This document shows, one piece after another, positions 5,312 through 18,266 of a DNA stretch of 19,758 bases. Position numbers and translations under genes: made by a program. Position 1 is the stretch's first letter. Each line of letters begins with the position of its first letter. Location: positions 1 to 19,758 of the forward strand of contig JAUQYZ020000033.1 in NCBI GenBank assembly GCA_030587475.2, written 5' to 3'. The notes beneath the pieces are model-generated. The model was not told the origin of the DNA. It saw only the letters and a list, made by a program, of their open reading frames with translations, and ran no database searches. Origin of the DNA: Candidatus Sigynarchaeum calidifontis (GTDB taxonomy: Archaea > Asgardarchaeota > Lokiarchaeia > Sigyniarchaeales > Sigyniarchaeaceae).

Positions 5312-5926
5312 TCAAGGAGAAGCGCTGGCCTTCTCTATATCCCCGAACCGTCTCATCACGAGCTCGAAGAACTCGTAATCGTCGTATTGAATGATCCGGG
5401 CAATTTCTCCCACAAACGAGATCTTTTTCTTCACAATGCCCGGAACGCATCCATCATCGAGAGGGAATTCTTTGAAGAATTTATAGAGAGCGATAAGCCC
5501 CTTCGCGAGATCCACACGTATTTTCTCGAACTTTTTGCTAGATAGGGCAACCCCGTTTTCGTAAAATTCCCGGTCTTCCTTATTAATGGCGGCCAAGAGT
5601 GCATTGCGCCGTTCTTGTCTTTTTTCCCTGAGCCGCTTGTTCGAGACAAGGCCGAGCGCGTCGAGCTTCCCCAGCTCATCAAAAGCTTTGGCGAATCGCC
5701 GGAACGTGGCCCCGTTCGCATATATATCAACGAAATCCGCTTTATACTTCAATATAACTCCGTTCGTGAGAATCTCCTTGAAATCAGACTCGTCTTCATT
5801 CAATACCTTCAAGACTTCCATCATCACGCTTCCCTCGTATTCCTTGCGGCTCTCCTCGTCGTAATAATTGATGATGGCGTCTATAAACCGCTGCCCCATT
5901 TCGGCGATCGGCCCGATTCCAGCCAT
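5312..5926 (-). CDS. Hypothetical soluble, charged, helical protein (204 aa)
   Basis: Long ORF with natural amino-acid composition; a TATA-like TTTTATA ends about 23 nt upstream of the ATG. No family recognised. Confidence 0.75.
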   Translation of the reverse strand: MAGIGPIAEMGQRFIDAIINYYDEESRKEYEGSVMMEVLKVLNEDESDFKEILTNGVILKYKADFVDIYANGATFRRFAKAFDELGKLDALGLVSNKRLREKRQERRNALLAAINKEDREFYENGVALSSKKFEKIRVDLAKGLIALYKFFKEFPLDDGCVPGIVKKKISFVGEIARIIQYDDYEFFELVMRRFGDIEKASASP

Positions 5927-5948
5927 ACCGTTCAGTTGCCTATCTTAG

Positions 5949-5957
5949 TATAAAAAA
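5949..5957 (-). promoter_or_regulatory. Putative TATA box of a leaderless transcript for the 204-aa gene
   Basis: Minus-strand TTTTTTATA ends 23 nt before ATG 5926, the spacing expected if transcription starts at or near the start codon. Confidence 0.35.
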
Positions 5958-5984
5958 ATATCCAAAAAGATATCCTGCAATGAT

Positions 5985-6896
5985 TCAGGAGGATCTCGTC
6001 GCGCCACTTGTCATGATACGGCGCTGGTGCACCTTCAACGGGTACACGAGACCCAAGTACGTGAGGAAACAGAACACGGGGATCGAGGTCATCGCCAGAT
6101 AATAAAATATCTGGCGGGCTGCCCGTGCCTCTTGCGGCTCGAGCCCGATGCCTTGAATGTTGTGGATGATGTAGAAGACGAAGAAAAGCACGAGAGTCAC
6201 GCCCGCCAGGAACAGGGCATAGAGCCCGATCCGCTCCTCCTTCGACTTGGTCGCCCGCACGCTCCTCAGCGGTTTCACGATCAGCGCGACCATGTTGTAC
6301 AGCCCAATGATGATGACCGGCAGAGTCTCGATGATCGACTCGACGGCCGTGATTTTCACCCACACGGACTTCGTGAGGATCGCGAGGAACACGACCAGGA
6401 GCCCGAGGAAGACGAGCACCGAAATCCAGTTCTTGCGGATCTGGGCGCGATGAAGATCGTTTGCGTCCACCGGATAATGGAGCCCGTTCTCGAATATCTC
6501 GAGCGTGAACAGGACCCAGTTTATCATTGCAAGCACGGTGAAGATAAAAATAGACCGGTTCAAGAAATCGTTCAGCAGCGTGTTAAAATAAGCAAACTCG
6601 ACGAGAAGGGAGATTGACAGCAGCGTGATGAAGGCGACGAATGCCATGATGAGGATCCGGATCGTTATTGATGGCCGCTCCCTGTATCGCTTGACCAGGT
6701 TCAGCACCAGCACGACGGTCACGACGATCGAAACCGAAAAGTTAATGATGGCCGCATAATCGATGAAATCCCACGGTTCTTGTATGATCGATTCGTATAT
6801 CGATGGTGTCCCGAGCACGATCGCCATGACCACGATCCAATACGAAAGAATGCCTATCCAGGAAAACTTCACGACATTTAATGTCTGGCTGGCCAT
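5985..6896 (-). CDS. Integral membrane protein, about 8 TM helices (1+7), unknown function
   Basis: 303 aa with eight hydrophobic stretches separated by basic loops (KRYRERP, KSKEERIG) and ending in YLGLVYP. Confidence 0.85.
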   Translation of the reverse strand: MASQTLNVVKFSWIGILSYWIVVMAIVLGTPSIYESIIQEPWDFIDYAAIINFSVSIVVTVVLVLNLVKRYRERPSITIRILIMAFVAFITLLSISLLVEFAYFNTLLNDFLNRSIFIFTVLAMINWVLFTLEIFENGLHYPVDANDLHRAQIRKNWISVLVFLGLLVVFLAILTKSVWVKITAVESIIETLPVIIIGLYNMVALIVKPLRSVRATKSKEERIGLYALFLAGVTLVLFFVFYIIHNIQGIGLEPQEARAARQIFYYLAMTSIPVFCFLTYLGLVYPLKVHQRRIMTSGATRSS

Positions 6897-7198
6897 CCGC
6901 GTCTATCTCCTTGCAAACTCGATTGGCAATGATCCTCGGATTGATATTAAAGCCTATTTGCAGCGAGGTAAACATGCCCCTCGGAATCTTTTTTATCCCG
7001 CGTGGTCGAGAGTTGCACCATGACAACGATCCGGGTGGGAATGTTGCGCGTCGCCGGGATAGATCTCGCCCGGCCAACCCGGCATGGAGGTTAGGGATTA
7101 AAGATGCTGCATGCGAGCGTCCAGCAAGCACATGCAACCTTCATAATTTCATCGATGATGGATCAACAATTAAGCCAATTTTAAGCAAAGCGAACGGC

Positions 7199-9160
7199 AT
7201 GGATCATATCAACAGAGCCCTTCCCACCGAAGGGCACACCCCGATGTACGTGATGCACAAGTACTTCGCGCGCAAACAACAAGACGTGATAAGCGAGTAC
7301 ATCAAGCATTATTCGAAAGAGGGGGATATCGTGCTCGACCCGTTTTGCGGGAGCGGGGTAATGATCGGCGAGGCACTCAAGCTCGGCCGGAAAGCTATCG
7401 GCGTGGACATAAACCCGGTCTCGATCTTCATCACGAGGAACACGATCAAGCACGTTGATGGTGATAAAATCATCGAGGAATTCAAGAACATCGAAAACGA
7501 CATCAGCCAGGACATCAACAGCTTGTACATTACCACTTGCAGGGAATGCGAAAAACTGGGCAAAAAAACCCGGCTTCCCGCCACTTGTTTCACGTGGAAG
7601 GGAAAAAGCCTCGTGGACGTGCGATACGAGTGCAAGCACCATGAAAAATCCAAGATCATCAGTCCCGTGAATGAAGACGACTTGAAATTGCATAATGACG
7701 TGTTGAATGGGAAGATGGATGCGTTTTTTGATAAATCAGGAGCTTGCAAGTACTGGTACCCCACGAATCGTTTCTACTATCGCGATGGTACCCCCTTCTT
7801 GAAAAAGGAAAGGTTCGAATCGGTTGACCAGCTCTTCACGAAGCGAAACCTCGTCGCACTTGCCAAGTTACGCGACCGGATCGAGAAAATAACCGATGAC
7901 GAATCGCGCGAATCGTTCAAGTTCGCCTTTTCTGCATTGACACACCTGGCATCAAGCATGACCCCCGTACGGCCCTCCCGTCCCTTTAGTTCGGCGTGGG
8001 TGCAGCAAAGTTATTGGAAGGCTCCCCATTTCATGGAATCGAACGTGTGGTACTTGTTCAAGCGGGGCGTGATGGAGCGGCAAGGGCTACTAAATGCCAA
8101 GCGGGACATCCCGGACGACTTCGCGTCCAAGAAAGAAGCCAAGGACCTCGACCAGTTGATGAGCAGTCCATCCCACCACTATCTCCTCGAGCTCTCCGCC
8201 AATGCTGCATTGAAAGGCTTGAAAGATAACAGCATCGATTACGTGATCACGGATCCGCCTTATGGCCATTCCATCCAATACGGGGAACTACTCTTCATGT
8301 GGGGCTGCTGGCTCAAGTTGATGGACAATTTCGACGAGCTAGCGAGGGGGGAGATCGTTGTCAATCCACGGCAGAGAAAGGACAAGGACGATTACGAGAA
8401 GGGATTAAGACAGGCCTTCCAGGAAATCTATCGCGTGCTGAAACCAGGAAAATATTGCACGGTCACATTCCACAATCCCGCGCTGGTGTACAGGAACATG
8501 CTCTTCAAGTCAGCCGTCCTGGCGGGGTTCACGTTCGAAAAGGTCATCTACCAGCCACCGCCCAGGCCATCCGCGAAGAGCCTCTTGCAGCCATTCGGAT
8601 CGCTCGAGGGGGATTATTTCTTCCGCTTCAAGAAATCCGAGGCCAAGGGCGAGCAAAAATTTGAATTGGCGGACGAGAAACGGGTTGAATCGTTGATTGT
8701 CGGGATTGCGGAAAGGATCATTGTCGAGCGGGGCGAGCCCACGAACTACACGTTCATCCAGAACTCGATCGACCCGATCTTGTACGAGGAATTGAGCAAA
8801 AGAGGAATGCTCATCTCATTTAATCCGACCAGCGTGCTCGATATCTTGAAAAAACACGTGGGAGAAACCTTCCGGCTCGTCAACGGGAATGGCAAGGACA
8901 GGCGGCAACAGTTATTGGCATCGGGATGGTGGCTCGCAGACCCGAACAAGTACAAGATCGAGATCCCGCTCGTGAAACGGGTTGACGATGCCATCGTGAA
9001 CTTGCTGCGAGAGAAAGGATCCGCCACGCTGGCGGAGGTGTTGACCGATGTCTACACGCGCTTCCAGGATGCATTGACCCCGGAATACCGCGCGATTCTC
9101 GAAATCTTGAAAAAACGTGCGATCCGATCGGGCGACAGATGGTCGTTAAAACCCGAATAA
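7199..9160 (+). CDS. Adenine-specific DNA methyltransferase with Zn-ribbon insert (COG1743-like), orphan
   Basis: N-terminal HKYFARK, SAM-binding VLDPFCGSG...GVDINP, a CREC...C...C insert, catalytic IDYVITDPPY, EIYRVLKPG and a helical C-terminal region. Start moved to ATG 7199 (MDHINRAL, 653 aa) because the 6881 start overlaps the divergent gene. Confidence 0.9.
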   Translation: MDHINRALPTEGHTPMYVMHKYFARKQQDVISEYIKHYSKEGDIVLDPFCGSGVMIGEALKLGRKAIGVDINPVSIFITRNTIKHVDGDKIIEEFKNIENDISQDINSLYITTCRECEKLGKKTRLPATCFTWKGKSLVDVRYECKHHEKSKIISPVNEDDLKLHNDVLNGKMDAFFDKSGACKYWYPTNRFYYRDGTPFLKKERFESVDQLFTKRNLVALAKLRDRIEKITDDESRESFKFAFSALTHLASSMTPVRPSRPFSSAWVQQSYWKAPHFMESNVWYLFKRGVMERQGLLNAKRDIPDDFASKKEAKDLDQLMSSPSHHYLLELSANAALKGLKDNSIDYVITDPPYGHSIQYGELLFMWGCWLKLMDNFDELARGEIVVNPRQRKDKDDYEKGLRQAFQEIYRVLKPGKYCTVTFHNPALVYRNMLFKSAVLAGFTFEKVIYQPPPRPSAKSLLQPFGSLEGDYFFRFKKSEAKGEQKFELADEKRVESLIVGIAERIIVERGEPTNYTFIQNSIDPILYEELSKRGMLISFNPTSVLDILKKHVGETFRLVNGNGKDRRQQLLASGWWLADPNKYKIEIPLVKRVDDAIVNLLREKGSATLAEVLTDVYTRFQDALTPEYRAILEILKKRAIRSGDRWSLKPE

Positions 9161-9568
9161 ACCGGGATTAAAGGGGATCCCACTTGTTCCCGGCCCTATT
9201 TTAATGATGACCTCCATCCATCCAGCAGACTCCACGAATCTCATCCCGGGGGGACGAATAGTAGGTCACGAATAATCAATTCCAAAAAAATATCAGCGCG
9301 TGAAGTTATGTGTTATATTTACGATACCATCCAGATATCGTTCAAATATTGGTTTAGATGTTGGTTTTTGAGCATTTTTTCCGCTGATTATTTTTAATGT
9401 GTAAAAATAAAGTTATGGTGTACGAATTCTTCAAAAAAAAACGGTTTGATGCCAACATTGGCCGTTATTTTTCATTCATTCGATGTTATTATATGAGATT
9501 GTTTCCCGATTTAGATCATTATCGAATAACAAAAGGGATCTGGAGAAAACGACCTATTTTTTAGAAGC

Positions 9569-9583
9569 CGAAATCCTTATATT
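9569..9583 (+). promoter_or_regulatory. Archaeal BRE/TATA promoter of the dnaK operon
   Basis: CGAAA (9569-9573), TC, CTTATATT (9576-9583); same layout as the hsp20 promoter. Confidence 0.7.
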
Positions 9584-9606
9584 CTCGCGTTGCTCATAGT
9601 TGGTTA

Positions 9607-9621
9607 GCAACTTGTGGTTGC
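9607..9621. promoter_or_regulatory. Putative Phr/HSR1-type heat-shock operator GCAAC-N5-GTTGC
   Basis: Perfect palindrome GCAAC-TTGTG-GTTGC starting 24 nt after the TATA box, near the expected TSS. An overlapping degenerate copy GCTCAT-N5-GTTAGC lies at 9592-9608. Confidence 0.75.
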
Positions 9622-9675
9622 ATACCAAAACTTAGATCATTGTTATTCACATATCACATTACAAGGTGAAAAGAA

Positions 9676-11574
9676 ATGACGGATAAATTGCACAAAGAGA
9701 AGATCGTGGGTATCGACCTCGGGACATCGAACAGTGCTGCCTCCATCATGATCGGGGGCAAGCCCGTTCTGATCCCGGCGGCGGAGGGCACGACCATCGG
9801 CGGTGGAAAAGCTTTTCCTAGCTTCGTTGCATTCACCAAGGATAAGAAAGTCCTCGTTGGAGAACCGGCCCGGCGCCAGGCAATATCGAACCCGGAACGC
9901 ACGATCACGGCAATCAAGCGAAAAATGGGTACGGATTACAAGGTCGAAATCGACGGCAAGAAATACACGCCCCAGGAAATTTCGGCGATGATCCTCCAGA
10001 AGATCAAGGCGGACACTGAGGCGTACTTGAACGAGCCGGTGACGAAAGCGGTCATTACCGTGCCGGCATATTTCAATGATGCACAGCGCACTGCCACGAA
10101 GGATGCCGGGCGCATCGCCGGCCTCGACGTGGTTCGCATCATCAACGAACCAACCGCAGCTGCCCTGGCTTATGGCCTGGACAAGAAAGGAAAGAACATG
10201 AAAATCGCCGTGCTTGACCTCGGTGGTGGAACGTTCGACGTGACCATCATGGAACTCGGCGATGGCGTGTTCGAGGTCATCTCCACGTCGGGCGACACGC
10301 AACTCGGTGGTACGGACATGGACCGGCTTATCATGGAGGACCTCGCCCGCGAGTTCAAGCGCAAGCACAACATCGACTTGCTGGCCGATCCGACCGCGAA
10401 ACGGCGATTGCTCGAGGCGGCGGAGAAAGCCAAGATCGAGCTATCTAGCGTGTACAGCACGCAGATCAACCTGCCATTCATCTCGCAAGACGCAAGCGGC
10501 CCGAAGCACTTCGACATGGAATATACGCGGGCAAGGCTCGAGGAAGTTATCTCGCCCGTACTAGACAGGTTAGATGCGCCGATGAAACGTGCCCTCGCGG
10601 ACGCGAAGCTTAACGCCAGCCAGATCGACTCGGTCATCCTCATCGGTGGCCCGACACGCATGCCTTGCGTGCTCGAGCGGTTCGAGAGGGTGTTCGGCAA
10701 GAAGGCAGAACGAGGCGTCGATCCCATGGAAGCGGTAGCCATCGGTGCTGGCATCCAGGGAGCTGTCCTGGCGGGAGACGTGAAGGACGTCCTCTTGCTT
10801 GACGTCACCCCCCTGTCTCTTGGCGTGGAAACGCTGGGCGGGGCGTTCACGAAGCTCGTCGAGCGCAACACGACCGTGCCCGTGAAAAAATCGCAAGTGT
10901 TCTCGACCGCTAGCGACAACCAGACATCCGTGGAAATTCACATTTTGCAAGGAGAGCGCCCGCTGGCTAAGGACAACTTTTCGCTCGGCAAGTTCTACCT
11001 GGACGGCATCCCGCCCGCCCCGCGCGGCCTCCCGCAGATCGAGGTCACCTTCGAGATCGATGAAAATGGCATCTTGCAAGTCACTGCCAAGGATCTCGGC
11101 ACGGGAAAGGACAAGTCGATCCGCATCGAGGGCACGAAGAAGCTCTCCGAGGAGGAGATCAAGAGGGCCCAAGAAGACGCGGAACGGAATAGGGAGGCCG
11201 ACGAGCGCGTGCGCGAGACGATCCAGAAGCGAAACGAGCTCGATTCCATGACATACCAGGCCGAGCGGCTCATGAAGGAAAACGCGGCGAAGCTCGATAG
11301 CGGGCTGCGCGACCGGCTCGTGAAGGCGCTGGACCATGCCCGGGACGTCGTGAAATCGAAAAGTGATAACATCCGAGAGATCGACGAGGCGCGAGCCGAG
11401 CTGGAGAAACCATTGCACGAGTTCGCCCAGAAATTGTATGCGACGAAGGGCAGCGCGAATACAGCGGGTGGCGATGTCGGGCCATCATACGGCTCGAGCG
11501 ATGCCGACCCCGTGTATGGCCCGGGAAGCACGAGCAAGGGCGACGATGGAGCGGTCGACGCGGAATTCTCTTGA
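9676..11574 (+). CDS. dnaK: Chaperone DnaK (Hsp70), archaeal/Gram-positive type
   Basis: Motifs [61 protein letters not shown] and C-terminal DAEF. It lacks the ~23-aa Gram-negative insert. SD AGGTGA lies upstream. Confidence 0.99.
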
Positions 11575-11595
11575 GCAAGGCGGTTGATGTTGCCA

Positions 11596-11614
11596 TTCTT
11601 TCCCCTTTTTTTCT
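11596..11614 (+). terminator. Oligo-T/pyrimidine tract after dnaK, possible partial terminator
   Basis: TTCTTTCCCCTTTTTTTCT about 20 nt after the dnaK stop; archaeal terminators are oligo-U tracts. Confidence 0.45.
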
Positions 11615-11672
11615 CCATTGAGGAGATCTAAGGGAATGAAAGATAAGGCGTGAAAAAACGAGCCAACTGGTG

Positions 11673-12707
11673 ATGTTGGTGACGACGAAAAAAGATTATT
11701 ACGAGATCCTCGGGGTGCCCAGGAACGCGACGAAGGAGGAGATCAAGCGCGCCTTCAGGAAGCTGGCAAGAAAATACCACCCGGACGTGAATCCTAACGA
11801 TCCCACCGCGTCTGAGAAATTCAAGGAGATCAACGCTGCCTACATGATACTCGGGGACGACAAGAAAAGGGAGATGTACGACAAGTTTGGCGTGGTAGAT
11901 GGCGAACCTGGAACGTATCCAGGCGCGAATGGCGGCTGGCCAGGTGGCGCCCGGGTCTACCAGGGACCAGACGGGACCACGTACTATTACACGACGTCTG
12001 GTGGCATCCCGGATTTCGATTTCAGCGAGATCTTCGGGGGCAGTCGAAGATCATCCAGGCAAGGCAGTTCGGGCCATGGTGGATTCGACTTTTTCAACGA
12101 CCTGGGAGATATATTTGACGTGTTTAACCGGGGCAGTGCAAGCACGAGGGCCCGGGGCCCTCGCACGAGCATACCCCGGGAAGGCGAGGATCTCCGCTAT
12201 GACATGGAGATCGACTTCATGGATGCCTTCACGGGCGGCGAGCGCCAGATCACCTTCAAGGATCCCTCGACGGGGAAGCCCCGGACGATCACCGTGAAAA
12301 TCCCGGCCGGCGTGCAAGATGGACAAAAATTACGACTGGCCACGCTCGGCATGCCCGGGGAGAATGGAGGCCCGCCAGGCGACCTGTACATCGCGGTCCA
12401 CGTGCGTCCGAGACCAGGATTTGACCGGAAGGAAAACGATGACGTGTCGGTCGTTGCCGAGATCCCTTTCACCACGGCCGTGCTCGGCGGGAAGGTGAGC
12501 GTGCAGGGCATCGATCGCACGCTCACGGTCACTGTCCCGCCCGGGACGAAGGATGGCACGACATTGCGGCTCAAGGGCCAGGGTTTCACGAAATTGAAAC
12601 AAAATGAACGTGGGAACTTGCTCGTGGACATCCACGTTCAAGTTCCAGACAAGATCAACTCGAAACAGAGAAAACTATTGGAGGAATTACGAAATGTTGG
12701 GCTATAA
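11673..12707 (+). CDS. dnaJ: Class II J-domain protein (DnaJ/CbpA-like, no Zn finger)
   Basis: J domain DYYEILGV...KYHPDVN...YDKFG, G/F-rich linker with DIF-like motifs and C-terminal domains (GEDLRY, KIPAGV, GDLYI, VPPGT, LKGQG). No CxxCxGxG repeats. Exact start uncertain (11670/11673/11679). Confidence 0.93.
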
Positions 12708-12737
12708 GCTAGGAAAATAATGGAGGCATGGTAAAAC

Positions 12738-15392
12738 ATGATGAAAATGGACGATTTCACGATCAAGGTGCAAGAAGCATTGCTCGCGGCGCGTTCGCTT
12801 GCACAGCAGCGCGATCACCCCTACATCGAACCGTTGCACGTGTTGAAAGCGCTGCTTGACCAGCAAGACGGCATCGCGAGGCCCTTGCTCGAAAAGCTTG
12901 GAACGCGCGTTGCTGCAGTGAACCAATCGATCGAGGGAGAACTCAAGCGAATCCCGACGGTGCACGGATCGGGCGCGAGTGATGTCGCTATTTCGAGAGA
13001 AACGGCGAGTCTTTTCGATGACGCGTGGAAAGAAGCGAGAAATCTCAAGGATCGCTATTTGAGCAGCGAGCATCTGCTATTAGCAATGGCTGAAAACAAG
13101 GGTACACCAGTCCAGCGCGTGCTTTCCGCGCATGGCATCACCAAGGATCGCATCATGCAAGCACTCGTCAGCGTGCGTGGTAGCCATGCAATCAATGATC
13201 AAGATCCAGAAAGCAAGTACCAGGCCATAGAGAAATATGCCAAGAACTTGACAGATCTCGCGCGGCGTGGTAAAATCGATCCCGTTATCGGGCGCGACGA
13301 CGAGATCCGCCGGGTTATGCACATCCTCTCGCGACGAACGAAGAATAATCCCGTGCTAATCGGCGAGGCCGGGGTGGGTAAAACGGCGATCGTCGAGGGC
13401 CTTGCCCAGCGGATTGCAAACGGCGACGTGCCGGAATCGCTCAAGAACAAGGAACTGGTAGCCTTGGATCTCGGCGCGATGATAGCAGGGGCAAAATATC
13501 GCGGCGAGTTCGAGGACAGGCTCAAGGCCTTGCTCAAGGAAGTCGAGAAATCCGACGGGCGATATGTATTATTCATCGACGAGCTGCACACGCTCGTGGG
13601 GGCTGGCGCGGCGGAGGGAGCCATCGACGCGTCGAACATGCTCAAGCCAGCCCTCGCCCGTGGCGAGTTGCGTTGCATCGGCGCGACGACCATCAAGGAA
13701 TACAGGAAACACATCGAGAAAGATGCTGCATTGACGCGCCGATTCCAGACCGTGCTGGTCGAGGAACCCAGCGTGGAAGACACGATCGCGATCCTCAGGG
13801 GTCTCAAGGAGAAGTACGAGGTGCATCACGGGGTTCGAATTTCCGATGCCGCCGTGATCGCGGCGGTCACGCTGTCGCACAGGTACATCACGGACCGGTT
13901 CTTGCCCGACAAGGCCATCGACTTGATGGACGAGGCCGCGTCGCGCTTGCGCATAGAAATAGACAGCATGCCGACGGAGATCGACGAGTTGGAGCGGCGC
14001 GTGATCCAGCTCGAGGTAGAGAAGCAAGCGTTGCTCAAGGAACAAGACCCGGCGTCAAAGGAACGCCTTGGCAAGATCGAGGAGGAACTCCACGAATTGC
14101 GTGAAAAAGGAGATGCACTCAAGCTACAATGGCGGAACGAGAAGGAGATAATCTCCAAGATTGGAGAGGTGAAGAAACAAATCGATGCTGCCAAGATGGA
14201 GGCCGAGCAAGCCGAAAACGAGGGAAACCTCGGTCGTATGGCGGAGCTGCAATATGGCGTCATCAGCGGCTTGCAAAAGGAGGTAGACCGCCTTGCCGGC
14301 GAGCTAAAGGCCATCCAATCGACCAAGAAAATGCTGAAACAAGAGGTCGACGAGGAGGACATCGCCAACATCATCTCGCAATGGACGGGCATACCTGTTT
14401 CGCGGATGCTGGAAGGCGAGAAAGCTAAACTACTCCACATGGAAGAACGTCTCGCACGTCGCGTGGTCGGGCAGGATGATGCCCTTCGCGTGATTTCAAA
14501 CGCGATCCGCCGGTCTCGAGCGGGCATCCAGGACCCGAACCGTCCAATCGGTACCTTCATATTCATGGGGCCAACCGGCGTGGGAAAAACCGAAACCGCG
14601 AAGGCACTCGCGGAATTCTTGTTCGACGACGAGAATGCCATGATCCGTATCGACATGAGCGAGTACATGGAGAAACATGCAGTCGCGCGGCTCATCGGGG
14701 CACCCCCAGGTTATGTCGGTTATGACGAGGGAGGATTCTTGACCGAGGCCGTGCGCAAGCGGCCATACTCGGTCGTGTTGTTCGACGAGATAGAGAAGGC
14801 ACACCAAGATGTTTTCAACGTGTTGCTCCAGATCCTCGATGATGGCCGCCTGACCGATGGTCACGGGAAAACCGTCGATTTCAAGAACACGATCATCATC
14901 ATGACCAGCAATATCGGGAGCGATCTCATCCTCGAATCGATGGAGCGAGGAAAGGATGGGCAGCTGGACCCGGGAACGATCAATACACTCTTATCCCGGT
15001 ACTTCCGGCCCGAGTTCTTGAACCGCATTGACGAGGTCATCGTGTTCAAGTTCCTCAACGAGGCTCGAATCCAAGCAATCGTGGACATCCAGATCCAGAG
15101 GTTGAACGCATTGCTGGCAGATCGCAAGCTCGAATTAGTAATAACACCCGAAGCAAAACAATTCCTCGCAAGACAAGGTTTCGATCCGAAATTCGGCGCG
15201 CGGCCTCTCAAGCGCGCGATCCAGAACTTCGTGCAGAATCCCTTGGCGAAACGCATCTTGGAAGGCGAGCTCGAGGCGGGCGACACTATCGAAGTCGTGT
15301 TGGACACGTCGAAACAGCAACTCGCGTTCAAGCGGATCAAGAACGCCATGAATGGCGAACGGAACAAGCGAGGTGAAACCCGATCGAAATGA
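12738..15392 (+). CDS. clpB: ATP-dependent disaggregase ClpB (Hsp100)
   Basis: Clp N-domain, NBD1 ([15 protein letters not shown]), a long coiled-coil middle domain, and NBD2 ([36 protein letters not shown]). No IGF ClpP-docking loop. Confidence 0.98.
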
Positions 15393-15523
15393 TGATGAAA
15401 CGTGAATTCGGGCTGGGTTTATATGCCCCCCGTACCATCACCTTTTCATTCCAATGTTGCCAATCTTCACTTGGCAACGTTGACCATGACAAAGACCATT
15501 GCGAATGGAAAAAATGCGGGTGA
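15389..15523 (+). CDS. Putative 44-aa Cys/His-rich small protein
   Basis: Hand translation: [48 protein letters not shown] overlap with the clpB stop, GAGGTGA at 15370-15376, and stop 6 nt before the next ATG. Confidence 0.35.
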
Positions 15524-15529
15524 AGAGAC

Positions 15530-16252
15530 ATGTCTGGCAATGAAGAGGAAGATGATTGGTTTTTCGACATCCTGGGCAACGATGTCCGTCGCAAAATCAT
15601 TCAAATGCTTTCTCGCGGCCCCACATCCATGAAACAGTTCACGGACGCGGTGAACGTGTCCCGGCAGGCCATACTCAAGCAGCTAGAACAGATGCAAGTC
15701 AAGGGTCTCGTCGAGTCGCACGACATGGAACTCGATGGGGACGAGAAGCGAAAGGGGCCTCCGGCCCGCGTGTATAACTTGACCAAGTTTTTCAAGATCG
15801 AATACGAGGTGAACCCGAGTTTCACAGAACCCCTTGTCACGAGGCTTTATTTGCTTCCAGGCGAGATAAACAAAACGAAACTCGATGATGAAGAGTTAAA
15901 GAAAAAATATCCGACAGATATCAGGGAATGTTTCAAGGATCTCGCGCAGATCGACTCGAACATTCAAGAATTACAAAACAAGCACAGGGAACTCTACCAG
16001 AAAAAGGTTGAATTGCTCAACCGGCTTCGATCTCGCATCGATCAGAGTTTCGACGAGAAGGAAGAGAAGGAAATCTTGTTATACATGCTCGCACACCCGG
16101 CACGGTCTCTGGAGGGGATGCGCGTTTCCGAACTTGCATCGGTGGTCCCGCTTCGCAGGGATTTTCTGGATGCAGTTCTCACGAGCTTGCAAAAACACGG
16201 GTATATCGAGCGAAAAGGTGAGATGGTACGCATCAAGGCAAAAAATGAATGA
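15530..16252 (+). CDS. Phr/HSR1-like archaeal heat-shock transcriptional regulator (ArsR-type wHTH, coiled coil, C-terminal HTH; COG1777-like)
   Basis: FDILGNDVRRKIIQML...VSRQAILKQL...GLVES...KGPPARVYNL parallels Pyrococcus Phr as recalled (LDVLGNETRRRIL...GRPRKYY). A heptad coiled coil and a second HTH-like segment follow. SD GGTGA at 15519-15523. Confidence 0.8.
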   Translation: MSGNEEEDDWFFDILGNDVRRKIIQMLSRGPTSMKQFTDAVNVSRQAILKQLEQMQVKGLVESHDMELDGDEKRKGPPARVYNLTKFFKIEYEVNPSFTEPLVTRLYLLPGEINKTKLDDEELKKKYPTDIRECFKDLAQIDSNIQELQNKHRELYQKKVELLNRLRSRIDQSFDEKEEKEILLYMLAHPARSLEGMRVSELASVVPLRRDFLDAVLTSLQKHGYIERKGEMVRIKAKNE

Positions 16253-16257
16253 AAACA

Positions 16258-16761
16258 TCACCACGGGGGGAAATCACCAGCCGTTGCACCAATCCAACCA
16301 GTTCCCCTGCAGATGGGGCACCGGGATCCCGTACTGAACGAGATGCCTTGCCCGCGGCAAGCCGGGCAAGCCGCTTCCACGCGCGTCCCGAATCCTGGAC
16401 TGAATGGCGGGTCAAAATGCCAGGTTGATGCAACATTTTGCCGAATGCCCCTGTAAACGTGCACGACACGTGTCGAATGGCTCGCTTTTTGGCAGCGATC
16501 ATGCTGCACCCTCGTGCCGACCACGGATGCGCGACGCTTTTCGATCGCAGCATCGTACGCCCGGCGCTCGCGGGCATCGCTCAAGATATCGTAAGCGTTA
16601 TTTAGCAAGATGAAACATTCTTGCGCATGAACGTCACCGGGATGTAAATCCGGGTGGCATGCTTTCGCTTTCTCCTTGAATGACCGCTTGATCTCGTCCA
16701 GGGATGCGTCTCTGTCGACCCCGAGGATCTTGTAATAATCTTCGTTGCTCAAGTGAACCAC
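16258..16761 (-). CDS. Small J-domain protein with C-terminal DnaJ-type zinc finger (two CxxCxGxG repeats)
   Basis: DYYKILGV...CHPDLHP...AYDILSD...RRAYD J domain, then CPACRGQG and CPICRGTG. No substrate-binding C-terminal domain. Start GTG 16761 or TTG 16752. Confidence 0.85.
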   Translation of the reverse strand: MVHLSNEDYYKILGVDRDASLDEIKRSFKEKAKACHPDLHPGDVHAQECFILLNNAYDILSDARERRAYDAAIEKRRASVVGTRVQHDRCQKASHSTRVVHVYRGIRQNVASTWHFDPPFSPGFGTRVEAACPACRGQGISFSTGSRCPICRGTGWIGATAGDFPPW

Positions 16762-16883
16762 GTAATTCCTGTCGATTCGACGTTCATAATGTATTGCAAA
16801 TGTGCAATCGCAACAGGGCGTTATTATTTACATTCAAGGCTCGCGAACATGAATCTATTCCAGGTAAGATCGATAAAAAGCAA

Positions 16884-16891
16884 TATATAAA
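16884..16891 (-). promoter_or_regulatory. Putative TATA box for the J/Zn-finger gene
   Basis: Minus-strand TTTATATA downstream of the hsp20 terminator; no clear BRE. Confidence 0.4.
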
Positions 16892-16965
16892 CTTGTACCC
16901 GAACGGGGAAAAATACAGCCAATAAACCAAGCACGCGGTTTCGGGCAAAAATGGTTTTCAAAGGG

Positions 16966-17001
16966 AAAAAAAAACAAGGAAAAAAAGCTCGGAGCCGAAC
17001 T
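16966..17001 (-). terminator. Terminator of the hsp20 pair
   Basis: On the minus strand, 15 nt after the stop: short hairpin AGTTCG-gctc-CGAGCT followed by T7 and T9 tracts. Confidence 0.65.
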
Positions 17002-17015
17002 CTTGCTGCATTTTT

Positions 17016-17366
17016 TCACGATAACTTGATGTCGACAGCATTGTCGAGGGGATTCTTGAATTTTCCCTTGATAAGGAGCAAGCCATGCTCGTACTTCGCC
17101 TCGATGGAATTCACGTCCATTTCGTAGGGGAAGTATTCGGTAAGGAGGTATTGGGTGTGCTCGCGCGTCGCCCGCAAGTCGAACATGTCAGGAAGCACGC
17201 GGAGCCGGACATTCTCCTTTGGAACCCCTGGCAATTCCACACGGGCGTTGTACTCGCCGGTCTCGCAATCGAAATCCGCGCTGTAATACGGGCGGATCCG
17301 CCAGTAGATCTCCTCGTCTGCCTTTTTTTCGACTATGCTCGTTTCTTTCGCTTTTGCTTCAACCAT
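17016..17366 (-). CDS. hsp20: Small heat-shock protein, single alpha-crystallin domain
   Basis: VELPGVPKENVRL, IEAKYEHGLLLI and C-terminal IxI-like VDIKL. SD GAGGTG at 17373-17378. Confidence 0.9.
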   Translation of the reverse strand: MVEAKAKETSIVEKKADEEIYWRIRPYYSADFDCETGEYNARVELPGVPKENVRLRVLPDMFDLRATREHTQYLLTEYFPYEMDVNSIEAKYEHGLLLIKGKFKNPLDNAVDIKLS

Positions 17367-17413
17367 GGGCTACACCTCTTTTTCCTTGTTTGAAATAAAG
17401 CATGGAAGCGAGA

Positions 17414-18073
17414 TCAGAGCTTGATCTCCTTCGCATCGTCCAGCGGATCGTGGATGACCGCATGGATTTTCAGCAAACCGTTGTAATATTCAGCTGTCGT
17501 CTTTTCAGGCACGATGTCAACACCAAAGCTGAGGTTTGCCGCGTATTCCAGATTGTCCTTCGGGCGCACCGCGCTCACGTGGAACCAGGATGGAAGCACT
17601 TTCAGCTCGATGTCTTCCTTCTTGACGCCAGGGATGCTCATTTCTACCTTTATCTTCTTGGCATCATAATCAGTGTCGCGGTAGACCCGCGGGAAGATCT
17701 GGTAGAACTTCTCGTTCTTGTAGTCCTTGTCACGCTTCATGACCGTGAACGCTTTCTCGAGTGGGTTGTATCGCTCGAACTCGACCCGGAGAAGCCCTTC
17801 GGTGTAATCGCTGGTCACCTTCGTCGGCTCGATGCGGAAACTCAGGTCCAAATCGAGGGTGTAAACGATGTTGTCGCGCTCGGCGCGCAAGGTGAAATAA
17901 TCTTCCATGGCCTTCATTTTAATAGCTTCTTTTGGCACGCCGGGCAAAGCAATCTCGAGCACGAACTTGTTGTCGTGTAACCATGCACCATAGCGGGGCG
18001 TGACCTTGTATTTGGGTTGTTCCTTCGCTTCTTGGATGTCTTTTGGTTTTTCAGCCGATTGTACAAGAGCCAT
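17414..18073 (-). CDS. hsp20: Small heat-shock protein with two tandem alpha-crystallin domains
   Basis: Domain 1 IALPGVPKEAIKM...SDYTEGLLRV; domain 2 MSIPGVKKEDIEL...AEYYNGLLKI...KEIKL. Start ATG 18073 chosen from SD GAGGTG at 18081-18086 (219 aa). Confidence 0.9.
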   Translation of the reverse strand: MALVQSAEKPKDIQEAKEQPKYKVTPRYGAWLHDNKFVLEIALPGVPKEAIKMKAMEDYFTLRAERDNIVYTLDLDLSFRIEPTKVTSDYTEGLLRVEFERYNPLEKAFTVMKRDKDYKNEKFYQIFPRVYRDTDYDAKKIKVEMSIPGVKKEDIELKVLPSWFHVSAVRPKDNLEYAANLSFGVDIVPEKTTAEYYNGLLKIHAVIHDPLDDAKEIKL

Positions 18074-18152
18074 CACAATCCACCTCGTCTGTGGGTTTTT
18101 TTCCATGTGTTAAACATCGGTGCATGATCGATCAAGAGAGATCGGTTCGGTT

Positions 18153-18182
18153 TGCAACCGATGCTTGCATATTGATCTTGCA
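18153..18182. promoter_or_regulatory. Tandem putative heat-shock operators at the hsp20 transcription start
   Basis: TGCAAC-CGATG-CTTGCA (18153-18169) and TGCATA-TTGAT-CTTGCA (18166-18182); TGCA recurs every 13 nt. Confidence 0.72.
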
Positions 18183-18190
18183 CAAGGTGA

Positions 18191-18205
18191 TATATAAATA
18201 TTTCG
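18191..18205 (-). promoter_or_regulatory. Archaeal BRE/TATA promoter of the hsp20 operon
   Basis: Minus-strand CGAAA-TA-TTTATATA, a consensus archaeal BRE+TATA. Confidence 0.8.
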
Positions 18206-18251
18206 CCCCGCGGGGAATAATCTGCCACGAATGCGGGCGCATGTTTTGAAT

Positions 18252-18266
18252 GCAATCCCACGTTGC
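18252..18266. promoter_or_regulatory. Upstream auxiliary operator copy
   Basis: GCAAT-CCCAC-GTTGC, one mismatch to GCAAC-N5-GTTGC, about 55 nt upstream of the hsp20 TATA box. Confidence 0.5.

Follow-up and report, generated by a model that had tools for sequence, protein, structure and literature searches.

The window analyzed here, which is the whole 19,758-base contig (G000:C184) of the 5-Mb, 269-contig genome of Candidatus Sigynarchaeum calidifontis (G000), carries on its + strand a unit of dnaK (Hsp70), dnaJ, clpB (Hsp100) and a gene for a winged helix-turn-helix (wHTH) regulator, on which a gene for a J-domain/zinc protein (the J/Zn gene) and two small heat-shock protein (sHSP) genes converge from the - strand. 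The best explanation as a whole, to which we give a probability of roughly 70%, is that this bacterial-type cassette and the sHSP genes are controlled by a duplicated native repressor of the archaeal Phr/HSR1 type. The borrowed bacterial chaperones are apparently run by an archaeal switch, because a predicted site lies on their promoter, on that of the sHSP genes and on that of the repressor gene. A first-pass annotation of this DNA had proposed that bacterial-type Hsp70, J-protein and Hsp100 genes, together with sHSP genes, belong to a native Phr/HSR1-type regulon, and related genomes, a paralogous operon and a conserved palindrome now lend this proposal support in silico. The family relationship of the regulator, its duplication, and the conservation and position of the operator were all established computationally.

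To our knowledge, the hyperthermophiles that carry Phr and HSR1 lack Hsp70, and the regulons of both proteins are small. As of a 2022 review, Phr and HSR1 were the only two archaeal heat-shock regulators identified (PMC9133787), and both control hsp20 and cdc48-type AAA+ genes (PMC5852551, PMC10653856, PMC9133787). We found no paper describing a Phr/HSR1-type repressor in a dnaK-dnaJ-clpB cassette. The Phr/HSR1 regulon itself is thus known, and what appears to be new is its extension to, and duplication into, a bacterial-type Hsp70/Hsp100 cassette.

A Common Palindrome at the Chaperone and Regulator Promoters

A common 23-bp palindrome, GTTxxCAA-N7-TTGxxAAC, was found at the promoters of dnaK, the regulator gene and the sHSP pair (Table 1). 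Each of these sites lies 10-25 nt downstream of a TATA box, where transcription is expected to start. When the 5-Mb genome was scanned with a matrix whose training sites came solely from other genomes, the window sites ranked 2nd, 3rd and 5th. The operator formed the invariant block in a four-genome alignment of the dnaK promoter as well as in a two-genome alignment of the sHSP promoter. The palindrome ahead of the regulator gene, a predicted autoregulatory operator, is kept in L004 and L007 and displaced in L001. Two separate motif classes (GTTGC-N13-GCAAC and GCAAC-N5-GTTGC) were considered and rejected, as re-registering on the CAA-N7-TTG core gave the single 23-bp palindrome.

The same palindrome occurs just past the TATA box at two further hsp20 promoters of this genome (on contigs C149 and C104), and the operator is kept in related genomes. 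The C104 site, which was outside the training set, precedes a canonical hsp20 by 29 nt and is retained in the congeneric genome G281, 13 nt past the TATA box. The pattern GYAAC-N5-GTTRC has five copies in the genome, of which only two are intergenic, namely those in the dnaK and the C149 hsp20-cdc48 promoters. The operator core, xAAC-N5-GTTx, is spaced like the published HSR1 site, CTAAC-N5-GTTAG (PMC9133787).

A loose version of the motif (WGYAA-N6-RTTGCA) was not enriched by count, with 29 matches in comparison with 15-27 for other spacings; the signal is carried only by the position of the sites and by their neighboring genes. This lack of genome-wide enrichment would suit the view that the neighborhood is coincidental and that the palindromes are targets of some unrelated factor or have a structural role in DNA or RNA. 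We regard such a coincidence as very improbable in the face of the linkage of regulator and cassette in at least five independent assemblies, the presence of a site ahead of the gene of the regulator itself, the match of the core to the published HSR1 motif, and the absence of a T-run after the hairpin at 15456-15478.

The claim that both main units possess archaeal promoters is borne out by boxes resembling the B recognition element (BRE) and TATA before dnaK and the sHSP pair. Bacterial promoters for the window genes were rejected, since sigma-70-type sites in the window were at chance level (7 seen, 6.0 expected). The conserved box ahead of the regulator operator may be a weak TATA of an internal promoter or a clpB end signal.

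Another strong operator-like site, at C205:88815-88837 (GTTGGCAC-N7-TTGGAAAC; genome rank 4), lies 38 nt upstream of a gene for a 497-aa protein without a Pfam family, which may be a further member of the regulon.

The Regulator Resembles Phr and SurR

By its sequence and its predicted fold, the regulator is placed in the Phr/HSR1/SurR group of archaeal ArsR-type regulators (the Phr/HSR1 family being arCOG01684), because Phr is its best match by sequence, and SurR and Phr are its best matches by fold. The wHTH (PF12840 and PF01022 over residues 15-63) aligns with that of Phr. A profile built from an alignment of 15 orthologues gave as its best PDB match 2p4w, the Phr of P. furiosus (E 5.9e-10, residues 9-171), in an alignment that covers the wHTH and the long helix and reaches chain residue 164; PH1932 and SurR were next in the ranking. 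The AlphaFold model (mean predicted local distance difference test score, pLDDT, of 69, and 76-92 from residue 131 on) contains, from N- to C-terminus, a wHTH, a helix of 43 residues (131-173) and another wHTH (177-235). When this model was compared with the PDB using Foldseek, only SurR (2quf/2qlz) and Phr fell under E 1e-3, with SurR the best.

The homodimer model of the regulator scored 0.60, as compared with 0.00 for the best of three controls, a level attained by 20 of 30 proteins whose structures were solved as pairs and by 1 of 23 with single-chain structures. The contact agreement between runs was at least 76% and the pLDDT of the partner at least 68. In the model, the two chains pair in antiparallel fashion along helix 131-169, an arrangement also seen in Phr. 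Since the Phr and SurR dimers are already solved, this result may reflect likeness to them.

The best NCBIfam family for the regulator was Phr_regulator, at 40.3 bits against a cut-off of 320. That model is typed 'exception' and is presumably specific to the Phr of Thermococcales, so that the missed cut-off excludes orthology to Phr proper and leaves membership of the wider family intact. The initial assignment to the Phr/HSR1 type is supported, with Phr and SurR as the nearest solved relatives, and the regulator is not an orthologue of Phr proper. A redox switch of the SurR type was ruled out for the regulator family, as no CxxC motif, invariant cysteine or conserved Cys/His cluster was found in the 15-sequence alignment.

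A Native Regulator Duplicated into the Cassette

We searched for orthologues of the regulator in 400 Asgard genomes, a set that spans the phylum and includes G000 and, from a sister family, closed genomes of 4.36 and 6.04 Mb. Strong orthologues were found only in the window's own family, f1. The source genome itself has a second copy (G000:C149:11084-11773), which is the last gene of an hsp20-cdc48-regulator operon, and an hsp20-(x)-cdc48-regulator operon is also present in three genomes of family f3, among them closed ones. The neighbors of the window copy, in contrast, are clpB and the sHSP genes. In a maximum-likelihood tree, all f1 regulators formed one clade (99/98), in which the clpB-linked copies made up a monophyletic group (97/93) branching from within the cdc48-linked f1 copies; the clpB-linked regulator is on this basis a duplicate of the native regulator within family f1.

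The survey of synteny across Asgard genomes that the first-pass annotation had recommended revealed that cassette and regulator recur together within f1, in L001/L003, L004, L007 and G282, with regulator and cassette linked in at least five independent assemblies. In G282, which represents a third genus, clpB is followed by a regulator 38% identical to that of the window and then by a converging sHSP gene. Because the linkage is kept down to this level of identity, it is taken to be old and maintained. The recognition helices of the two paralogues are nearly identical (VSRQAILKQL and VSRQAILKHL), and the paralogues probably share or overlap sites.

The cdc48-linked paralogue of G280 (L030:8870-10396; G280:C1 about 3412869-3414395) is a 508-aa protein that extends beyond its regulator part by about 270 residues without a Pfam family.

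Distribution and Predicted Control of clpB across Asgard Families

ClpB is present in 85 of the 400 genomes, concentrated in the window's class (Loki-type families) and one other family, and the earlier statement that ClpB is rare in archaea is thus overstated for this class. A 2026 survey reported ClpB in a few Asgard genomes and did not mention its regulation (PMC12874294). Of 29 other genomes, 26 have a class-B dnaJ adjoining clpB. The gene order in families f4 and f7 is grpE-dnaK-dnaJ-clpB, with grpE directly before dnaK, and in family f3 clpB is solitary. No Phr-like gene was found within 1.5 kb of clpB outside f1 in these 29 other Asgard genomes, and the regulator copy within the cassette is, as judged from the genes present, special to family f1.

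The clpB promoters of f3 (G135, G138, G143; L075-L077) carry xACAAC-N5-GTTCAC or TTAAC-N5-GTTGAC beside TATA, closed genomes being among those with such sites at clpB, and sites of this kind are also found in G143 and G138 ahead of hsp20-cdc48-regulator. Each of four f4 genomes has TTGWCAA-N7-TTGWCAA as an exact match only once, and always at a heat-shock promoter, as compared with no matches for reversed-pattern controls; the promoters concerned are those of hsp20-cdc48, grpE-dnaK-dnaJ-clpB, x-cdc48 and hsp20. As f3 and f4 promoters share related palindromes, the predicted control of the bacterial-type genes by a Phr/HSR1-type regulator is class-wide.

Sites at the f3 clpB and f4 grpE-dnaK promoters without any linked regulator could also mean that only the older, cdc48-linked paralogue binds the palindromes. 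The copy beside clpB would then have diverged to another role, such as responding to another signal, forming heterodimers or regulating only itself. The almost identical recognition helix of the cdc48-linked copy would accord with this, as would the simple hsp20 palindromes of C149 and C104, which differ from the three-half-site operators of the window in their flanks and in their distance from TATA. We nevertheless consider such a division of labor unlikely: the best palindrome stands directly before the clpB-linked gene and is conserved there in three genomes, the half-site at this position matches the dnaK operator, and the gene has stayed next to clpB even where the regulators are deeply diverged (down to 38% identity).

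The f3 operator lies immediately upstream of TATA, over the BRE position, whereas in f1 and f4 the operator is downstream of TATA. This placement, together with the two-wHTH architecture and a best fold match to SurR, which both activates and represses, would favor an activator or dual regulator, or one that responds to redox (as SurR) or metals (as ArsR/SmtB) and not to heat. All window sites, however, lie past TATA and over the expected start, which is the position of the Phr repressor (PMC9133787), the regulator family lacks CxxC and any conserved Cys/His cluster, and the predicted targets are all chaperone genes. A role of this kind therefore seems quite improbable for the window regulator.

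Several observations weigh against control of the cassette by a duplicated Phr/HSR1-type repressor. The regulator is far below the NCBIfam cut-off for Phr (40 vs 320 bits) and has a second wHTH that is absent from Phr. The recognition helices of the two paralogues are too similar for the sites to be attributed to the clpB-linked copy in particular. The top match of the matrix genome-wide, at C8:40767, is intragenic, in a gene for a PKD/REJ-like protein, and is probably due to chance. At the J/Zn promoter, the site is weak (ATAAC-N5-GTTGC at 16807-16827; matrix scores 1.9-5.6) and about 60 nt past its TATA box. The operator was absent from the promoters of the second dnaK (C229/C27), grpE (C62) and the class-A dnaJ (C222) of the same genome. 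The f3 site upstream of TATA could mean another mode of action, even activation.

Genes of the Window and Their Genomic Setting

The window genes were called from Pfam and NCBIfam scans (Table 1). The convergent arrangement described in the first-pass annotation, dnaK-dnaJ(II)-clpB-regulator facing the sHSP and J/Zn genes, was recovered with all its members, although their order and ends are slightly different.

Table 1. Genes, promoter elements and predicted operator sites of the window.
Feature	Position	Strand	Basis or remarks
dnaK BRE-like (CCGAAA) and TATA-like (TTATATT) boxes	9569-9583	+	Sequence reading; TATA columns invariant in four-genome alignment
dnaK extra half-site GTTGCTCA, 6 nt past TATA	9589-9596	+	GTTGC kept in window, L004 and L007
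dnaK predicted operator GTTAGCAA-N7-TTGCATAC	9603-9625	+	Over predicted transcription start; genome-wide rank 2
dnaK (Hsp70), 632 aa	9676-11574	+	TIGR02350 835.8 bits, above cut-off 822.55; PF00012 713.9 bits
dnaJ, class B (type II), 345 aa	11670-12707	+	PF00226 and PF01556 only
clpB (Hsp100 disaggregase), 884 aa, middle domain included	12738-15392	+	TIGR03346 1350.5 bits, cut-off 1232.1
Conserved box CACCTTTTCA, ahead of regulator operator	15439-15448	+	Kept in window, L001, L004 and L007
Regulator predicted operator, perfect 8+8 palindrome GTTGCCAA-N7-TTGGCAAC, no extra half-site	15456-15478	+	Genome-wide rank 5
Phr/HSR1/SurR-type ArsR-family regulator, 240 aa	15530-16252	+	N-terminal wHTH, long antiparallel coiled-coil helix, C-terminal wHTH
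J-domain protein with CxxCxGxG-type zinc module, 167 aa	16258-16761	-	PF00226 76.5 bits; DnaJ_CXXCXGXG and Anti-TRAP matches weak
Single-domain sHSP-like protein, 116 aa, second gene of sHSP pair	17016-17366	-	Self-comparison with tandem sHSP
Tandem alpha-crystallin sHSP, 230 aa, two domains	17414-18106	-	PF00011 42.6 bits, cut-off 20.8
sHSP-pair predicted operator ATATGCAA-N7-TTGCAAAC	18150-18172	-	Genome-wide rank 3; conserved in L004
sHSP extra half-site TTGTGCAA, between TATA and operator	18178-18185	-	Kept as TGCAAG in L004
sHSP operon BRE-like (GCGAAA) and TATA (TATTTATATAT) boxes	18190-18206	-	Sequence reading; TATA identical in L004

The window DnaK scores above the TIGR02350 cut-off for bacterial-type DnaK (835.8 vs 822.55 bits), and ClpB is full length, covering positions 1-849 of the 853 of TIGR03346 with the domains Clp_N, AAA, AAA_lid_9, AAA_2 and ClpB_D2-small. 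Judged from these equivalog scores and from published work (PMC12874294), dnaK and clpB are probably of bacterial origin. The dnaJ product falls below the TIGR02349 cut-off. A Pfam scan of the 345-aa protein found no zinc finger (PF00684/CXXCXGXG), and DnaJ is accordingly assigned to class B/II, as the J domain and DnaJ_C are present and the zinc finger is absent.

The sHSP pair is unusual in consisting of a two-domain tandem protein followed by a short single-domain one nearly devoid of an N-terminal arm, and the pair (17414-18106 and 17016-17366) is kept in L004 and G282. The two alpha-crystallin domains of the tandem protein were revealed by self-BLAST. Its true start is probably at 18073, giving 219 aa, as suggested by the 219-aa orthologue in L004. 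The 116-aa protein is 28-32% identical to each domain of the 230-aa protein; it passes no curated cut-off, its NCBIfam archaeal Hsp20 score of 36.7 bits being below the threshold, and its gene is followed by a terminator-like hairpin and T-run at 16983-17004.

The contig was judged to be archaeal and non-chimeric because of its Asgard homologues, a synteny that recurs in independent assemblies and its normal G+C. The close homologues of the regulator are labeled Lokiarchaeota or Sigynarchaeota, the dnaK-dnaJ-clpB-regulator unit recurs in the independent assemblies L001/L003, L004 and L007, and L004 shares the acyltransferase and PAS-kinase genes upstream in the window. The cassette genes have a G+C of 0.56-0.59, which is inside the distribution for genes of the genome (0.552 +/- 0.042). 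A bacterial or chimeric contig, which the first-pass annotation had named as a possible flaw, can thus be set aside in favor of an Asgard contig (Promethearchaeota, Loki-type). Recent transfer was likewise rejected on the typical G+C and the shared synteny, and the cassette is, on this sequence evidence, not a recent arrival in the genome.

Among other chaperone genes of the genome, a second dnaK, 83% identical to that of the window, is split over contig ends (G000:C229:11914-13239 and G000:C27:6736-7236) and may represent either a genuine paralogue or material from another strain in the bin; its TATA box is adjoined by a different palindrome, TGACA-AG-TGTCA. The sole grpE of G000 (C62:49106-49612, - strand) is located apart from both dnaK genes, beside an alcohol dehydrogenase-like gene.

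Upstream of the cassette, a 515-nt A+T-rich spacer (9161-9675; G+C about 0.45) separates a methyltransferase gene from dnaK. It contains neither an open reading frame of at least 60 aa nor a match to Rfam, and the promoter and operator account for only its last 110 nt; no Rfam family was found in the window as a whole. The preceding region (5312-9160) encodes two family-less - strand proteins (204 and 303 aa) back to back with a 759-aa protein with N6/N4 DNA-methylase signatures.

Comparison with Known Systems

HSR1 (AF1298) of Archaeoglobus fulgidus is an autoregulated ArsR-type wHTH protein encoded in one operon with cdc48 and hsp20, which is the layout of the C149 paralogue, and its operator core (xAAC-N5-GTTx), as given in reviews, is like that of the window. 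In contrast to HSR1, the window copy ends a bacterial-type dnaK-dnaJ-clpB cassette, which A. fulgidus lacks, and has a second, C-terminal wHTH, and the window operators have longer arms (23 bp) and extra half-sites.

Phr (PF1790, PDB 2p4w) of P. furiosus and other Thermococcales is the best sequence match among solved structures, and shares with the window regulator a wHTH, a coiled-coil dimer (antiparallel, as modeled here) and an operator over the transcription start (as predicted here). Its regulon comprises hsp20, an AAA+ ATPase gene and its own gene. The window regulator is, however, only about 20% identical to Phr, whose site consensus (TTTA..TGGTAA..AAAA) is unlike the window palindrome, and Phr has neither a C-terminal wHTH nor DnaK or ClpB targets.

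SurR (PF0095, PDB 2qlz/2quf) of P. furiosus, the best fold match, has the same two-wHTH architecture, and its extended site, GTT-N3-AAC-N5-GTT, contains an AAC-N5-GTT element. SurR is a CxxC redox switch for sulfur and hydrogen metabolism, whereas the window family is without CxxC and has predicted chaperone targets.

A functional parallel to the window is found in the HspR/HAIR system of Actinobacteria (dnaK-grpE-dnaJ-hspR), in which the repressor gene is the last in the dnaK operon, is autoregulated via an inverted repeat and also controls clpB. HspR is a bacterial MerR-family protein that acts at sigma-70 promoters, uses DnaK as a co-repressor and is not homologous to the window regulator.

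The same three classes of chaperones that we predict to be made together in this archaeon form the bacterial IbpAB-DnaK/DnaJ/GrpE-ClpB and the yeast Hsp26/42-Hsp70-Hsp104 systems. The yeast system had been put forward as the functional analogue, but the bacterial one is closer. The window locus differs from both in that grpE is unlinked (C62), the J-protein is of class B, the sHSPs are a tandem-domain protein and a short single-domain one, and an archaeal repressor is predicted in place of sigma-32, HrcA, CtsR or HSF.

Proposed Mechanism and Significance

In the mechanism that we consider most likely, the dnaK-dnaJ(class B)-clpB cassette, which is of bacterial type but has been present in this class of archaea for a long time, would have gained a duplicate of the native Phr/HSR1-type repressor at its 3' end, and this in one genome family only. 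The repressor, as a coiled-coil dimer with the conserved recognition helix VSRQAILKQL, would bind the 23-bp palindrome and, like Phr, block recruitment of RNA polymerase at the start sites of dnaK, the sHSP pair and its own gene. Its release would be brought about by heat or proteotoxic stress, whereupon sHSP holdases, Hsp70/J and ClpB would be made together. The older hsp20-cdc48-linked paralogue would share or overlap these sites (cross-talk). Repression and the heat response are suggested here by the position of the sites and by the known behavior of the family.

Homeostatic chaperone feedback is known from HspR-DnaK, HrcA-GroEL and sigma-32-DnaK. By analogy, it is conceivable, though rather doubtful, that the clpB-linked repressor is itself a client of the DnaK/DnaJ/ClpB machine whose genes precede its own, such that free chaperone would keep it active and a load of aggregates would titrate the chaperone away. 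Sensing might, speculatively, be assigned to the acidic/lysine linker (residues 91-124), which is modeled with low confidence. On this reading, the four wHTH domains that a dimer possesses would account for the three half-sites in the operators of dnaK and the sHSP pair. Should it prove true, no earlier chaperone-feedback circuit would have been described in archaea, and this one would be found in the closest relatives of eukaryotes.

The duplicated Phr/HSR1-type repressor that we favor would make the locus an indication of how mesophilic archaea control Hsp70 and Hsp100 machines taken from bacteria. The bacterial regulators would not have been imported with the genes; a native Phr/HSR1-type switch would instead have been extended to them and, in one family, duplicated into the cassette. 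The locus thus offers a concrete and testable pair of operator and regulator for Asgard archaea, and would represent a clear case of the regulatory domestication of transferred genes.

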